A stretch of 35,293 nt of DNA from a virus. Its lineage: Duplodnaviria > Heunggongvirae > Uroviricota > Caudoviricetes. Below are positions 1,294 to 29,519 of this stretch, piece after piece; position 1 is the stretch's first letter; the number at the start of each line of letters is the position of its first letter. The stretch lies in the IMG/VR virus record IMGVR_UViG_2778261341_000005. One strand, given 5' to 3'. The notes under the pieces are model-generated. The model was not told the origin of the DNA. It searched no databases and worked only from the letters and a program-made list of their open reading frames with translations. The position numbers and the translations under genes are program-made.

Positions 1294-1407
1294 TACCCAA
1301 TTTTTCTGAATCTAAAAAGCGCCTGCGGGTGGTTTTAGTGGGAGATTAACATATTGAAAATAAAGATTTTTTATTTTCATGTGTCCAGATAACGTCCATC
1401 TTTGAAA

Positions 1408-1450
1408 CAAAAAGCCCGCAGTTTTTTTACGCCGCGGGCTTTGTTTTTCT
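1408..1450. terminator. hairpin terminator downstream of serS, apparently bidirectional
   Basis: aaagcccgc ... gcgggcttt stem with A-run on the 5' side and tttgttttt on the 3' side; read on the minus strand it is the counterpart of the terminators that end hok units 2 and 3. Confidence 0.55.
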
Positions 1451-1533
1451 TTGTGACTTTTGTGTGAGGGTGCGACTTTCGACCGAACCTTTGGCAACCG
1501 GATAGCGGGGGCTTTCACCCCCGCTGCGGTTTC

Positions 1534-1674
1534 TTACGGTTTACACTGCAAGAACGCCGCAAATTCTGACCACATGATGTTAAGTCTGAACTCACACGGA
1601 GAACGGTGTATCATCCAGACGGTCAACAACATGGTTAAGCATAAAATGCTCACGATGATCGTTTTTTGCGGCAT
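1534..1674 (-). CDS. Hok/Gef-family type I toxin, copy 1 (46 aa)
   Basis: Minus-strand ATG with AAGGAG Shine-Dalgarno; product MPQKTIIVSILCLTMLLTVWMIHRSPCEFRLNIMWSEFAAFLQCKP: one TM helix then a C-E-F-R ... E-F-A-A-F block as in Hok/Gef. Six substitutions relative to copy 2 without frame disruption. Below the 60-aa track threshold. Confidence 0.7.
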   Translation of the reverse strand: MPQKTIIVSILCLTMLLTVWMIHRSPCEFRLNIMWSEFAAFLQCKP

Positions 1675-1715
1675 AGCGCTTGACTCCTTTTACAGGGAGG
1701 CGCTAACCTTCCACT

Positions 1716-1775
1716 TGTCTAGGGTAGGAAGGGTTAGGCCTCGGGTTAAACAAATGTTTTACTCGGGGCCTTTCC
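1716..1775 (+). ncRNA. putative Sok-like antisense RNA, unit 1 (boundaries approximate)
   Basis: Plus-strand TTGACT (1680-1685) and TAACCT (1704-1709) promoter-like hexamers antisense to the hok leader, then ggccucggg ... cucggggcc hairpin plus UUU. Confidence 0.3.
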
Positions 1776-1891
1776 ACATCCGGCCTTCAGGTATTCCTTC
1801 CAGCCGTCAGCCGAAAGGCACCCGCATGTAATTTACTGATTTCCCTTTGTGTGCGCAATGCTCAGTATTGAAGCTGTTGAGGGGAGACGGC

Positions 1892-1916
1892 AAAAAAAAG
1901 CCCGCATATTGCGGGC
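1892..1916 (-). terminator. intrinsic terminator ending the hok unit-2 transcript
   Basis: gcccgca-tat-tgcgggc hairpin preceded on the plus strand by A8, i.e. followed by U8 on the minus strand. Confidence 0.55.
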
Positions 1917-2006
1917 AATGAAGTCAGTACGCTAACCCAAAAGGGTGCCATATCAGCCGAACCCGGCAACCGGATAGCGGGGGGCTTTCACCCCCGCTGC
2001 GGTTTC

Positions 2007-2147
2007 TTACTGTTTACACTGCAAGAACGCCGCAAATTCTGACCACATGATGTTAAGCCTGAACTCACACGGTGAGTTGTGTATCATCCAGACAATCATC
2101 AAAATAGTTATGCATAAAATGCTCACTATGATCGTTTTTTGCGGCAT
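2007..2147 (-). CDS. Hok/Gef-family type I toxin, copy 2 (46 aa)
   Basis: Translated codon by codon from the sequence: MPQKTIIVSILCITILMIVWMIHNSPCEFRLNIMWSEFAAFLQCKQ; AAGGAG 10 nt upstream of ATG; TAA stop at 2007-2009. Confidence 0.72.
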   Translation of the reverse strand: MPQKTIIVSILCITILMIVWMIHNSPCEFRLNIMWSEFAAFLQCKQ

Positions 2148-2188
2148 AGCGCTTGACTCCTTTTACAGGGAGGCGCTAACCTTCCACT

Positions 2189-2248
2189 TGCTTAGGGTAG
2201 ATGGTCAGGGCCTCGGGTTAACATTAAAGTTGACTCCGGGGCCTTTCC
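2189..2248 (+). ncRNA. putative Sok-like antisense RNA, unit 2 (boundaries approximate)
   Basis: TTGACT 2153-2158, TAACCT 2177-2182; hairpin 2209-2243 (ggccucgg / ccggggcc with a G-U pair) followed by UUUCC. Confidence 0.3.
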
Positions 2249-2364
2249 ACATCCGGCCTTCAGGTATTCCTTCCAGTCGTCAGCCGAAAGGCACCCGCAT
2301 GTAATTTACTGATTTCCCTTTGTGTGCGCAATGCTCAGTATTGAAGCTGTTGAGGGGAGACGGC

Positions 2365-2389
2365 AAAAAAAAGCCCGCATATTGCGGGC
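2365..2389 (-). terminator. intrinsic terminator ending the hok unit-3 transcript
   Basis: Identical hairpin plus A8/T8 tract, 473 bp from the unit-2 copy. Confidence 0.55.
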
Positions 2390-2479
2390 AATGAAGTCAG
2401 TACGCTAACCCAAAAGGGTGCCATATCAGCCGAACCCGGCAACCGGATAGCGGGGGGCTTTCACCCCCGCTGCGGTTTC

Positions 2480-2620
2480 TTACTGTTTACACTGCAAGAA
2501 CGCCGCAAATTCTGACCACATGATGTTAAGCCTGAACTCACACGGTGAGTTGTGTATCATCCAGACAATCATCAAAATAGTTATGCATAAAATGCTCACT
2601 ATGATCGTTTTTTGCGGCAT
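2480..2620 (-). CDS. Hok/Gef-family type I toxin, copy 3 (46 aa)
   Basis: Nucleotide-identical to copy 2 over the ORF (shifted by 473 bp). Its upstream promoter differs from copies 1-2 but keeps TTGCAC-N17-TAAATT on the minus strand (~2776-2806). Confidence 0.68.
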   Translation of the reverse strand: MPQKTIIVSILCITILMIVWMIHNSPCEFRLNIMWSEFAAFLQCKQ

Positions 2621-2661
2621 AGCGCTTGACTCCTTTTACAGGGAGGCGCTAACCTTCCACT

Positions 2662-2718
2662 TGTCAGGTAGGAAGTGTCAGGGCCTCGGGTTAACGTTAG
2701 TTGACTCGGGGCCTTTTC
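2662..2718 (+). ncRNA. putative Sok-like antisense RNA, unit 3 (boundaries approximate)
   Basis: Same promoter hexamers as unit 2 shifted by 473 bp; hairpin 2682-2713 with a different, shorter loop than units 1-2. Confidence 0.28.
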
Positions 2719-2775
2719 ACATCCGGCCTTCAGGTATTCCTTCCAGCCGTCAGCCGAAAGGCACCCGCGCGTAAT

Positions 2776-3440
2776 TTACCTTTTACGTCCGTTACGTGCA
2801 ACGGATGACGTGGCTGTTTTTCCTTCCCCTTCGCCATCCTTTTTCGGAGCAGTTGTGCAAAAGTGTGCAAAAGTGATTTTTGCTGCCACTCCCCGCCAGG
2901 CCGCGCCAGTTCTGGCTTTCCTGATTTTTTCGTTTTCGTCGTCGGATCCTTTTTCAGATCTTCGATCGTGACGTAATTTTAAAAATCTCTTGTTATTCAG
3001 TGCATTAAATTTTTTCGGGATCCTCAGAAAGCCGGAGTTTTTGCACACTTTTGCAAAACCTTGCACAAAGTGCAAAACCATTCAGAAGGGAAAACCTCAG
3101 TAATGGCGCGCCCTGGCGGGGTGTTTTGCACCCATTTCGATTTGCAAAATTTATCGTACACAAATACCGGAGGCGTGTGCGGGGTAGCGCCGATTACGTC
3201 ACTTTACGCGTTACGTCGCCCCCGAAAATTTCCGGCCATTTGCGGCGATTCTGGGGCGCAGAAATCGTTTTCTGATGTCAGGGGATCGAATCGGGCCGGC
3301 GGGGTTATCTCTTCGTTACGTGGCGTTACGTGACGTTTTACGCGGGGATTACGTGGGGCGTTTCGTCCATCTTTTTTTCTGCTGCGGGTGGTTTTTTCGT
3401 GGTGGGTGATGTCCGGTGATGAATATTTTTTATTGTCGTG
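2776..3440. promoter_or_regulatory. non-coding block with operator-like and iteron-like repeat arrays (function unknown; possible att or regulatory region)
   Basis: No convincing ORF. Inverted copies of tgcaaaagtgtgcaaaa at ~2861-2884 and ~3040-3060 flank an AT-rich GATC-containing spacer; palindrome TTGCACaaaGTGCAA at 3061-3075; further TTGCA half-sites at ~3124 and ~3141. Direct (c)gTTACGTg repeats cluster at 2786-2806, 3193-3220 and 3314-3356. Confidence 0.35.
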
Positions 3441-3446
3441 GGAATA

Positions 3447-3476
3447 AAAAAGGCCACATTGCGCGGCCTGTTAAAA
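3447..3476 (-). terminator. intrinsic terminator at the end of the late/tail operon
   Basis: Minus-strand ggccgcgcaatgtggcc hairpin followed by ttttttatt, immediately after the stop of the 557-aa gene. Confidence 0.55.
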
Positions 3477-3483
3477 TGAATAA

Positions 3484-5157
3484 CTATTCGATTATTGGTG
3501 AATATTTATTTTTAAGCTGGCGGCACTCCTGAGCGACCTGGCTGAACTGTGCGGCCTGCGGAGACGTGCCCGTTTTGGGGTGGGTATGTGATGCTGTAAT
3601 ATCTGCCAGCTCTTCCACCACATCGGCAAGGTCCGTCAGCATGGTCAGTACATTAATGCCCTCGTTTCCCAGCTTCACCGTATCGCCAACCAGCTTCTGC
3701 GCCAGCGCAATACTGTGACGGACGCCCTTAATCTTTTCGGTAAGGCTGCCGCCCACGGTGTCCTGGGTGTCGCCTTCCACGTCGCGCTCACAGGTACCGG
3801 CAACCACCATCATGTGCCCGCCCGTGCTGATGCTGTAGTTCTCTTCAGTGATATGGGTGACCGCGCCAGCCTGAAGCGTGGATACGCCCAGGACGGTGGT
3901 TGTGTCGGTTGCCTGTATGGTGGTCTCCCGGCTGGTCAGGCTCCGCTTTTCCTCGTCTGCACTCACCACGCGCTCGCGTGATGTCTCCTGTATCCGCTGG
4001 TCTGTCTGGCGCTCCCAGTCTCCGGCGACCGTCACGCGCTGCGATACGCCGTCGCGCTGTTGCTGCAACTGCTCGCCCGGCTTCACGTCGGGCAGATTGT
4101 GGCCCTCTGCCATTATCTGGCGGATGAAGGGCTTATCCGCCCGGCCTTCCACAAATCCCACTTCCACCAGGGTTCCGGGCGGCGGGAACTGGAACATGCC
4201 GGACTCACTGCCCGCCATGGGAACGGGGAGGGGAACGGCGTTATAAACGGGCGTATCCGCTGCCGGGTTGCCGTTCTCGTCAAGCAGCTGGAGATTCACC
4301 GCGTAGCGGGGTCTGAACGGGTCGGCAATATTGCCCGCGCTGACGGCTTCGGTCGGCGCCTCAACACGTGCCAGTTTGGGCAGGTGAAGCCCTGATGCCA
4401 GTTCAGGGAAGGCCTTTTCAGCCTGGCGACGGAAAGGGGACTTCTGGAGGGGGGCGCCGGTGGCTTTATTGCGTGGTGTCCACGTGATGGTCATGTTGTC
4501 ATCTTCCAGCATGACCATCGTCAGGCGCTGACCGTTCACCTCCACACCCGGTCGCAGCGTCGGAATCATCGGGAGGGTCATACTGTGCCCGCCCGTTGAT
4601 GCCTGGCTGAACTCGTGCGGGATGGTGACGGGGCGACCGGAAAACATCCCCTGCGCGGCAGCAGCGGCCATAATGCCGCCGTCCGGTAACGGATGCCAGA
4701 TGTAATCCGGTACGGAGAAAATACGCCCCAGACTGGCCAGCAGTTCGTAGCCCGTGCCGCTGTGTGTGAAATGCGGAACGGGTCTGTCAGTGTAAGCCGC
4801 GTTGTCCGGCAGGATGATTTCCAGCCCGCTGGCCTCACTCAGCCACTGTGTGACCGTGCGCATTGTCGGGTGCTGAAATGAACAGGGGAAGGGGTGATCA
4901 AGGATCCCCGCCATTTCACGAATCAGAAGCCGCACCGAGCCGTTTTCAGCGGGCTGGCTGCGTTCAACGTATCCGGTAAACCAGCGCACCAGGTCGTTTC
5001 CGTATCCGATATCGAGACGAACGGGGCGCCCGGTGTAGTTCTGCTCTGTTCTGGCCGTGATAAATCCGCGTCCGCACGCGTTCAGCTCAAGCATGACGGA
5101 ACAACTGACCAGCTGAATGGTGTCGTTACCCAGTAACAGACGTTTAGTGGGGTTCAT
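3484..5157 (-). CDS. baseplate hub / central spike protein (gpV-like OB-fold; possibly a gpD-gpV, VgrG-like fusion)
   Basis: 557 aa; mid-protein segment VPLPVPMAGSESGMFQFPPPGTLVEVGFVEGRADKPFI resembles the gp5/gpV/VgrG OB-fold motif; C-terminal SHTHP near the tip (His-x-His apex as in spike proteins); last gene of the tail operon. Confidence 0.5.
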   Translation of the reverse strand: MNPTKRLLLGNDTIQLVSCSVMLELNACGRGFITARTEQNYTGRPVRLDIGYGNDLVRWFTGYVERSQPAENGSVRLLIREMAGILDHPFPCSFQHPTMRTVTQWLSEASGLEIILPDNAAYTDRPVPHFTHSGTGYELLASLGRIFSVPDYIWHPLPDGGIMAAAAAQGMFSGRPVTIPHEFSQASTGGHSMTLPMIPTLRPGVEVNGQRLTMVMLEDDNMTITWTPRNKATGAPLQKSPFRRQAEKAFPELASGLHLPKLARVEAPTEAVSAGNIADPFRPRYAVNLQLLDENGNPAADTPVYNAVPLPVPMAGSESGMFQFPPPGTLVEVGFVEGRADKPFIRQIMAEGHNLPDVKPGEQLQQQRDGVSQRVTVAGDWERQTDQRIQETSRERVVSADEEKRSLTSRETTIQATDTTTVLGVSTLQAGAVTHITEENYSISTGGHMMVVAGTCERDVEGDTQDTVGGSLTEKIKGVRHSIALAQKLVGDTVKLGNEGINVLTMLTDLADVVEELADITASHTHPKTGTSPQAAQFSQVAQECRQLKNKYSPIIE

Positions 5158-29197: not shown

Positions 29198-29376
29198 GGT
29201 GTTTGGCCTCTTGTAGTAAGTTCTGAAAACTCACCATCCAGAGCTGCGAAACAGTGGGTGGCGAGACGTACGAGGTTCGCAGTACCGGCTACAAGAGATC
29301 CCGGCCCGACCGAAGTCGGCCCCGTACGCCCCGCCATAATTCTGACGCGAAAAAGACGTGGCGATACAGTACGCAC

Positions 29377-29397
29377 AAAAAAACCGCTGGCGCGGTT
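29377..29397 (-). terminator. intrinsic terminator inside the early region (putative)
   Basis: Plus strand aaaaaaa + accgctggcgcggt: read on the minus strand a GC hairpin followed by T7. Confidence 0.4.
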
Positions 29398-29519
29398 GTG
29401 CGCTCTTGTAGTCGGCAGGCTGCGAAACCCGGCACCCGTTTTATGAGGTGCAGCGGGAATGTAACCTGACTGATTGCGGCATGGCAAGCGGTTTTTTTGT
29501 GTGTGCATGTTCTGGTTTC

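Follow-up and report, generated by a model that had tools for sequence, protein, structure and literature searches.

The locus considered here raises the question of why tandem copies of a toxin–antitoxin (TA) module that agree in most of their length should differ sharply in one short block, and of whether that block gives each copy an antisense control of its own. It is found in a 35,293-nucleotide (nt) stretch of viral DNA (Caudoviricetes; IMG/VR record IMGVR_UViG_2778261341_000005), referred to below as the window, in which Tandem Repeats Finder reports a repeat at 1493-2779 with a period of 473 nt and 2.7 copies; it corresponds to three near-identical tandem paralogues in one intergenic stretch. 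Each has a toxin gene of the Hok/Gef type on the minus strand and, within its leader, a predicted plus-strand antisense RNA resembling Sok. An earlier note on this DNA had proposed that divergence between the units is concentrated in a hairpin predicted to be the Sok-like RNA and its target, so that each copy may have its own antisense specificity. The reading favoured here, with moderate confidence, is that these are three hok/sok-type type I TA modules, carried as cargo at attL of a P2-family prophage, and that each is controlled mainly by its own predicted Sok.

In a MAFFT three-way alignment, unit 2 (1913-2190) and unit 3 (2386-2663) agree over 278 nt without a difference, an identity that takes in the inter-unit terminator, the fbi region, the 3' hairpin, the hok open reading frame (ORF) and its Shine–Dalgarno sequence (SD), and the predicted Sok -35 and -10 hexamers. 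Among the 397 aligned columns these two units differ at 19, of which 15 lie in one 50-column span (2191-2236 / 2664-2707), a clustering that none of 100,000 permutations reached; the clustered differences are at 2191-2203 (11 columns), 2223, 2226, 2227 and 2236, and the remaining four at 2247, 2277 and 2299-2300. Unit 1 differs again in the same block, as the earlier note had said, with 17 of its 33 differences from unit 2 located there (also 0 of 100,000 permutations); of the others, the hok ORF accounts for 13, which are substitutions, and the 3' untranslated region for a few. Divergence is, therefore, not evenly spread, and its concentration in the predicted antisense/target region, which was the central claim of the note, is borne out both here and by the family diversity described below. 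The claim that units 2 and 3 are identical over the hok ORF, the 3' hairpin and the promoters needs trimming: it is right for the ORF, the hairpin and the Sok promoter, but the homology of the two units stops at 2309/2779 and the hok -35 hexamers are consequently unlike (TTGCGC in unit 2, TTGCAC in unit 3). Given this limit and the four scattered differences, it is too much to call the units identical in all other respects.

Taken in a different phase, the array consists of V1, a 427-nt repeat, V2, the 427-nt repeat and V3, where V is the variable block:

1718-1763: variable block V1, comprising the Sok tail/target loop and 5' arm plus the apical loop of the Sok hairpin (from the alignment)
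2191-2236: variable block V2 (from the alignment and family diversity)
2664-2707: variable block V3 (from the alignment)
1764-2190 and 2237-2663: copies 1 and 2 of a 427-nt near-perfect direct repeat, with a sole mismatch at 1804/2277

Divergence of duplicates in situ cannot yield about 35% difference in 45 nt beside 427 nt with one change, so that recombination between long-lived alleles is needed: either a duplication or conversion in the recent past, its tract delimited by V, or import of V via recombination in the conserved flanks.

The assignment of the units as hok/sok-like, also made in the earlier note, is upheld by profile searches. The toxin ORFs are:

1534-1674, minus strand: hok of unit 1, 46 amino acids (aa), MPQKTIIVSILCLTMLLTVWMIHRSPCEFRLNIMWSEFAAFLQCKP; Pfam HOK_GEF 27.8 bits, and annotated by RefSeq as 'Hok/Gef family protein' in near-identical genomes
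2007-2147, minus strand: hok of unit 2, 46 aa, with the SD AAGGAG at 2162-2157; Pfam HOK_GEF 29.4 bits
2480-2620, minus strand: hok of unit 3, 46 aa, with the same nucleotides as unit 2 (ORF list and alignment)

The Pfam scores exceed the gathering score of HOK_GEF (PF01848), which is 22 bits. The named NCBIfam Hok groups are not matched, the scores being 37.9-40.7 bits for HokA (NF007290) against a cut-off of 89, and 27.3-30.5 for NF007279 against 73; since these values are far under the NCBIfam cut-offs for HokA and the Hok subfamily, the toxins are, to judge from their sequences, a divergent Hok subfamily and not HokA.

The minus strand is predicted to give one hok mRNA from each unit:

1408-1823, minus strand: predicted hok mRNA of unit 1, placed by its 5' GGGUGCC at 1823 and the start of the Rfam sok alignment; its elements are an fbi-like GCACCC (1473-1468), the 3' hairpin (1524-1505) and a terminator hairpin (1439-1414) in common with serS
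1896-2296, minus strand: predicted hok mRNA of unit 2, about 400 nt; -35 TTGCGC at 2331-2326, -10 TAAATT at 2308-2303, intrinsic terminator 1916-1900
2369-2766, minus strand: predicted hok mRNA of unit 3; -35 TTGCAC at 2801-2796, -10 TAAATT at 2778-2773, intrinsic terminator 2389-2373

The promoter-like hexamers, as read from the sequence, have 17 nt between TTGCGC or TTGCAC and TAAATT, and the predicted 5' ends all read GGGUGCC (1823, 2296 and 2766). The Rfam sok model RF01794, which describes a 157-nt hok leader, matches the minus strand end to end in all three leaders (1663-1823, 2136-2296 and 2609-2766), with scores that are considered below. Some 350 nt downstream of the 5' GGGUGCC stands its complement, GGCACCC, in the manner of tac and fbi, and both are invariant in the family; nt 1-22 are paired with nt 330-356 in the minimum free energy (MFE) fold of unit 1, but the MFE folds of units 2 and 3 prefer local structures.

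On the plus strand, each hok leader holds a candidate promoter followed by a candidate antisense RNA:

1713-1774, plus strand: predicted Sok-like RNA 1, with -35 TTGACT at 1680-1685 and -10 TAACCT at 1704-1709 (Rfam sok homology; ends inferred); 5' tail about 1713-1736, stem-loop 1737-1770
2186-2247, plus strand: predicted Sok-like RNA 2, with -35 at 2153-2158 and -10 at 2177-2182; 5' tail about 2186-2208, stem-loop 2209-2243, then UUUC
2659-2717, plus strand: predicted Sok-like RNA 3, with -35 at 2626-2631 and -10 at 2650-2655; stem-loop 2682-2713

The arrangement TTGACT-18-TAACCT is invariant in every unit examined (1680-1709, 2153-2182 and 2626-2655 in the window), and sits where the Rfam consensus places the Sok promoter. 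The RNA predicted from it is about 60 nt long: its single-stranded 5' tail takes up some 22 nt and leads into a G+C-rich, conserved 3' stem-loop, GGCCUCGGG...CCGGGGCC (1737-1770, 2209-2243 and 2682-2713), followed by UUUC or UUUU. When the three plus-strand RNAs and their minus-strand complements are folded, as the earlier note had suggested, the former reach -24.2 kcal/mol (z -3.8), -26.1 kcal/mol (z -3.8) and -27.6 kcal/mol (z -4.7) for RNAs 1, 2 and 3, and the latter just -12 to -16 kcal/mol. The hairpin is stabler on the plus strand in all 17 distinct variants found in the family, by a mean difference of -9.9 kcal/mol; its two or three G.U pairs are C.A mismatches on the minus strand, where no G.U pairs are present, and the variants in the upper stem retain pairing. 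As the plus-strand version is always the stabler and only it has the G.U pairs, there is good evidence, from modelled folds, that the helix is selected in a plus-strand RNA.

The hairpin that the earlier note had taken to be both the Sok-like RNA and its target is, thus, part of the predicted antisense RNA, but as its conserved 3' stem-loop, the variable part lying mainly in the 5' tail. In keeping with this, the differences that the note had placed in the hairpin loop and flanks are mostly in the 5' flank (2191-2203), with four columns in the apical loop and upper stem, and the stems themselves are conserved. In the hok leader, a second stem-loop (GAGGC...GCCUC) has a loop and 5' arm to which the tail is complementary; this stem-loop has one architecture in 28 of 28 variants, with compensatory changes in the inner stem and an apical loop of 7-14 nt. 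The predicted tail–target duplexes have energies of -46.5 to -47.8 kcal/mol for cognate pairs and -21.3 to -30.8 kcal/mol for non-cognate pairs, i.e. about half of the cognate duplex energy is retained by non-cognate tails.

The variation seen between the three units was compared with that in related loci. A DNA pattern built on three conserved blocks retrieved 107 IMG/VR contigs, which with the window and three E. coli loci gave 99 full units, 66 of them distinct, and across this set the variable block is the most variable segment. Nucleotide diversity (pi) is 0.364 in the Sok tail/target loop and 0.303 in the apical loop of the Sok hairpin, 0.307 and 0.111 at the third and second codon positions of hok, 0.096 in the 5' leader and about 0.04 in the hairpin stems, the last being partly fixed by the search pattern; for the leader flanking the variable segments the values run from 0.04 to 0.11. 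A 20-column span at the tail has 29 alleles, against a median of 13. There are 28 discrete tail alleles, 13 of which are paired with more than one allele of the hok coding sequence (CDS), with six at most, and eight of the 44 CDS alleles are paired with more than one tail allele. Among 114 unit pairs that are 1-3% apart outside V, 95 differ at four or more of the approximately 40 V columns. No complete set emerged from a four-gamete test on the exact alleles of tail and CDS, the alleles being too many, and mosaicism was argued instead from shared alleles. V alleles recur unchanged in many contigs, and strain 154 has a V3 identical to that of the window though its unit-3 hok CDS differs at two sites. 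Local hypermutation of V was rejected on the same observations, namely unchanged V alleles on different backgrounds and the same V3 despite differing hok CDSs. The V alleles are, then, discrete stable types that are exchanged relative to their flanks.

The V blocks of neighbouring units are 25-59% apart in all arrays recovered, and the contig L012 supplies a second neighbour pair with identical hok CDSs yet differing V. The distinctness of neighbours is weak evidence by itself, because the chance that random units share a tail allele is only 8.6%. Five of the 32 Hok protein alleles in the viral-contig set are frameshifted or truncated at the C terminus, so some hok copies in the population are decaying; the three in the window are intact. 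In E. coli, 1037 genomes have a match, with roughly 1300 places between them. The hok family appears to be confined to Escherichia: applied to contigs representing one genome per species, the same pattern had matches in Escherichia albertii and in one 857-bp contig from an assembly of Xanthomonas, and nowhere else. That contig (L113; NZ_JPLE01000227.1, Xanthomonas pisi) matches the Escherichia hok/sok leader pattern exactly and is probably contamination.

The following course of events would account for these features. The minus strand would be transcribed into a hok mRNA of about 400 nt whose 5' GGGUGCC can pair with the 3' GGCACCC, and the plus strand into a Sok of about 60 nt from the promoter inside the hok leader. 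If R1 hok/sok and hokW/sokW are a guide, the Sok tail may nucleate pairing with the apical loop and 5' arm of the leader stem-loop, after which the duplex would extend and the hok mRNA be silenced or cleaved; cleavage of the duplex by RNase III, which has been shown for R1 and hokW/sokW (PMC9841398, PMC8621323), is the default assumption for how repression is achieved. Since Sok and target are the two strands of one DNA segment, any change in V would leave the cognate pair perfectly matched and weaken pairing with the paralogues, hence each unit would likely be controlled mainly by its own Sok. The discrete, long-lived V alleles may be reshuffled relative to hok by recombination in the conserved flanks, and the two 427-nt copies would have arisen through a recent duplication or conversion whose tract ends at the variable blocks.

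Work on characterized systems makes copy-specific antisense recognition plausible. The 11-nt 5' tail of R1 Sok is the part that first recognises the loop of the refolded hok mRNA (PMC1635323), and the five chromosomal Soks of E. coli K-12 do not silence R1 hok (PMC9841398). OrzP, with 15 of 18 bases complementary, is unable to repress zorO (PMC3919570), and the Sib RNAs repress cognate ibs mRNAs only, their recognition domains always being in hypervariable regions (PMC2943612). Given the precedents of OrzP/zorO, Sib/ibs and the K-12 Soks versus R1 hok, copy-specific control is the most likely reading.

Several observations weigh against this reading, or limit it. The RF01794 scores are 51.3, 44.0 and 35.8 bits (E 5e-10 to 7e-6), all below the gathering score of 59. 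A strict consensus scan of 1300-3000 gave no sigma-70 sites, so the promoters are candidates called from homology and conservation, and with only three or four U residues after the Sok hairpin termination there is uncertain. A mok frame is absent, no ORF of at least 20 aa overlapping the hok start in any of the three units (ORF list); an in-frame UAA lies 18 nt upstream of the hok start, and the short upstream frames are unlike between units. Hok instead has its own SD, AAGGAG, 9 nt before the AUG and overlapping the Sok -35. For these apparently mok-less units, the R1 route, in which repression acts via the mok initiation region, cannot apply unchanged. The predicted Sok binding site is 25-85 nt upstream of the hok SD, and MFE folds of the full mRNAs give no consistent picture of how Sok binding might occlude the SD; a switch between GAGGC:GCCUC and CUCC:GGAG pairing was considered for this and is speculation from modelled structures. 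With respect to specificity, non-cognate tails have perfect runs in common of 8 nt (units 1 and 2), 9 nt (1 and 3) and 6 nt (2 and 3), and the first five nt, ACUUG, are the same in all three tails, such that partial cross-repression, especially with unit 1, is possible. Two viral contigs of one genome (L044 and L064; IMG genome 2534681673) are alike in their Sok tail and loop allele, so that separate loci can harbour identical specificities side by side in a genome. With regard to selection, the search pattern fixes 30 flanking bases and slightly inflates the contrast between V and its surroundings, and the tail diversity of 0.364 is only slightly above the 0.307 of third codon positions, so that positive diversifying selection is not demonstrated.

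The last of these findings bears on an explanation that needs no selection for orthogonality, which is possible but doubtful. According to it, V lacks constraint on its primary sequence and drifts near the neutral rate, sense and antisense co-varying automatically, while purifying selection freezes the structured leader, the promoters and the toxin; a recent duplication or gene-conversion tract homogenised 1764-2190 and 2237-2663 and ended at V by chance, and cross-talk, which may or may not occur, did not shape the pattern. Relaxed primary-sequence constraint does explain much of the tail diversity, because this barely exceeds that of the third codon positions. Drift with mosaicism also fits what is seen beyond the identical tract, where units 2 and 3 differ at four of 73 nt (2237-2309), as is normal between alleles of the leader; it likewise fits the evident mosaic structure and the coexistence of identical V alleles in one genome. 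Further, identical TA copies would be harmless, and for this reason avoidance of cross-talk within an array has no obvious selective benefit. It accords less well with duplication or conversion tracts that stop at V on both sides, here and in L012, or with V alleles that are discrete and remain stable while their flanks change, as with the V3 of strain 154 and its altered CDS. The 95 of 114 pairs with 1-3% flank divergence that differ in V exceed what a uniform neutral rate would give unless alleles are exchanged. That no array has two equal V blocks also counts against it, if weakly, the random match probability being 0.086. If selection has acted on V, competition between related prophages, in which a resident Sok of the same type cancels an incoming addiction module, would be a more natural driver than avoidance of cross-talk, though this is speculative. 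A stronger form of the idea, which we regard as unlikely, is that the Sok tail/target block is an incompatibility-type determinant of prophage addiction, with at least 28 discrete specificities kept among P2-family phages by negative frequency-dependent selection. Were it true, a resident Sok of the same type would neutralise the hok of an incoming phage (anti-addiction) and rare types would win; the arrays at attL would be sets of specificities collected by recombination in the conserved flanks, and would also protect against loss or displacement by related phages.

Two further explanations dispense with functional antisense pairs. It is very unlikely that the units are decaying, silent relics, as for the K-12 chromosomal hok loci, with V reflecting erosion of a disused antisense region. 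The K-12 hok/sok loci are reported to be inactive (PMC1635323), the promoters in the array are weak by consensus, and the frameshifted hok alleles noted above occur in some family members. By contrast, the three ORFs, SDs, promoter hexamers, tac/fbi complements, terminators and both hairpin stems are intact and nearly invariant in the window's units, the stem-loop architectures are preserved through compensatory changes, and the recurrence of unchanged V alleles over many contigs is not what erosion would leave. The suggestion that the hairpin region is a protein- or ribosome-binding leader element, or a plus-strand terminator for serS read-through, with no antisense RNA involved, is also very unlikely. 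A plus-strand hairpin could act on any plus-strand transcript; however, the region is homologous position by position to the Rfam sok/hok-leader model, including the promoter location, the promoter-like TTGACT-18-TAACCT is conserved directly upstream in every unit, and serS has a terminator upstream of the array. Three hok/sok-type modules, each answering mainly to its own Sok, remain the preferred reading.

So read, the locus resembles the hok/sok (parB) system of plasmid R1 in its Hok/Gef toxin and predicted mRNA of about 400 nt with complementary ends (PMC1635323, PMC9841398), in a predicted antisense RNA, cis-encoded and some 60 nt long, whose 5' tail is single-stranded and precedes a stable stem-loop, and in the location of the predicted antisense promoter inside the leader, where the hok SD overlaps the Sok -35. 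It differs from R1 in the absence of a mok frame and the presence of a strong hok SD, in a Hok of 46 rather than 52 aa, in a leader under the Rfam gathering threshold, and in being prophage-borne and tandemly triplicated, not a single plasmid locus. The hokW-sokW pair of Sakai prophage 5 in enterohaemorrhagic E. coli (EHEC) O157:H7, a functional type I TA system (PMC8621323), is likewise a prophage-encoded hok/sok with an antisense RNA, predicted in the present case, complementary to the hok 5' untranslated region; it is present in single copy in a lambdoid Stx phage, as opposed to a three-unit array at attL of a P2-family phage.

In terms of how copies are told apart, the closer likenesses are with unrelated systems. 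Ibs/Sib of E. coli consists of similar tandem paralogues with cis-encoded antitoxin RNAs whose recognition region is in the hypervariable part; repression is by the cognate RNA only and a domain swap swaps the specificity (PMC2943612). The toxin and RNA are unrelated to those considered here, Sib spans the whole ibs ORF and has two recognition domains, and its specificity is experimental, whereas that of the array is inferred. ZorO-OrzO and ZorP-OrzP of EHEC are near-identical tandem duplicates apart from V1, a short variable stretch at the antitoxin RNA's 5' end, which decides discrimination (PMC3919570). Unlike the predicted Sok, Orz is divergently encoded with just 18 nt of complementarity, and its V1 is 3 nt, compared with about 45 nt with indels for V. 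The principle of tandem type I loci with hypervariable antitoxin recognition is therefore already established by Ibs/Sib and Zor/Orz, and the present locus joins that kind within a mok-less hok subfamily of P2-family prophages; a specialist who knows the principle would not be surprised by it.

Arrays of hok have been surveyed in Enterobacteriaceae, where 10% of hok genes are in islets of two to six copies within 2 kb, as are 13.5% of chromosomal hok genes in Escherichia; the islets were ascribed to local duplication and hok was found to be enriched in prophages (bioRxiv 10.1101/2025.08.07.668861). That survey took the Hok coding sequence only, explicitly leaving out Sok, mok and mRNA structure, and does not describe a concentration of divergence in the Sok region (bioRxiv 10.1101/2025.08.07.668861). 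The present results show that hok islets are mosaics with an exchangeable antitoxin-recognition cassette and not plain duplications, and such cassette behaviour bears on competition among prophage-borne addiction modules. If each unit answers only to its own Sok, the locus would be a natural source of three hok/sok pairs that are mutually orthogonal and nearly isogenic, with at least 28 such pairs available across the family as a whole. The rules of Sok antisense recognition could then be dissected with the rest of the module constant, and the pairs might serve as orthogonal kill-switch or plasmid-stabilisation parts.

The first gene of the window, at 1-1293, is serS of E. coli, and comparison of the junctions places the hok array within a P2-family prophage, adjoining attL, as cargo. 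In NZ_CP067426 a P2-family prophage is annotated between serS and dmsA, with genes for the P2-family capsid, GPO scaffold, portal, terminase, Cox, ogr, a replication endonuclease and an integrase; it is the genome of strain 154 (O22:H8) and one of three, matching 1300-3500 with 99.3-99.4% identity, in which RefSeq names three genes here 'Hok/Gef family protein'. A BLAST comparison of both prophage ends gave no convincing att direct repeats, and the junctions were instead placed against the serS-dmsA intergenic region of K-12, in which the insertion splits AAAAAGCGCCTGCGGGCGCTTTTTTT inside the serS terminator:

about 1322-1329: left prophage junction, with an att core of about CCTGCGGG, inside the serS terminator (K-12 intergenic region and right junction of NZ_CP067426)

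The right junction falls just past the end of the window (about 5330-5350 of L111). A bidirectional substitute terminator supplied by the phage, at 1414-1439, serves serS as well as hok unit 1. A comparable array with two units is found in other strains, between serS and ogr of a different P2-like prophage. More generally, arrays of two or three units beside serS, at the ogr-proximal end of a different P2-like prophage, are seen in L003 (3160-3997), L002 (2994-4551), L012, L040 and L070. Where units are set further apart by an additional 250 nt or so, or by a small ORF, as in some strains, the spacing is about 722-725 nt, compared with the 473 nt found here.

Between hok unit 3 and the first tail-side gene are about 700 nt (2780-3480) with no convincing ORF, where RefSeq calls a small minus-strand hypothetical protein. 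Long-range inverted repeats at 2852-2872/3039-3059 (21 nt, 95%) and 2888-2914/3098-3124 (27 nt, 85%) could build an imperfect hairpin of about 270 nt, and the segment also has repeated CGTTACGTG motifs (2790, 3209, 3314 and 3324) and TGCAAAAGTG repeats. In the early region of the prophage, two further small RNAs lie side by side on the minus strand, i.e. C4 antisense RNA (29254-29341, 81.1 bits) and isrK (29377-29451, 65.5 bits), both of which exceed their Rfam gathering scores.

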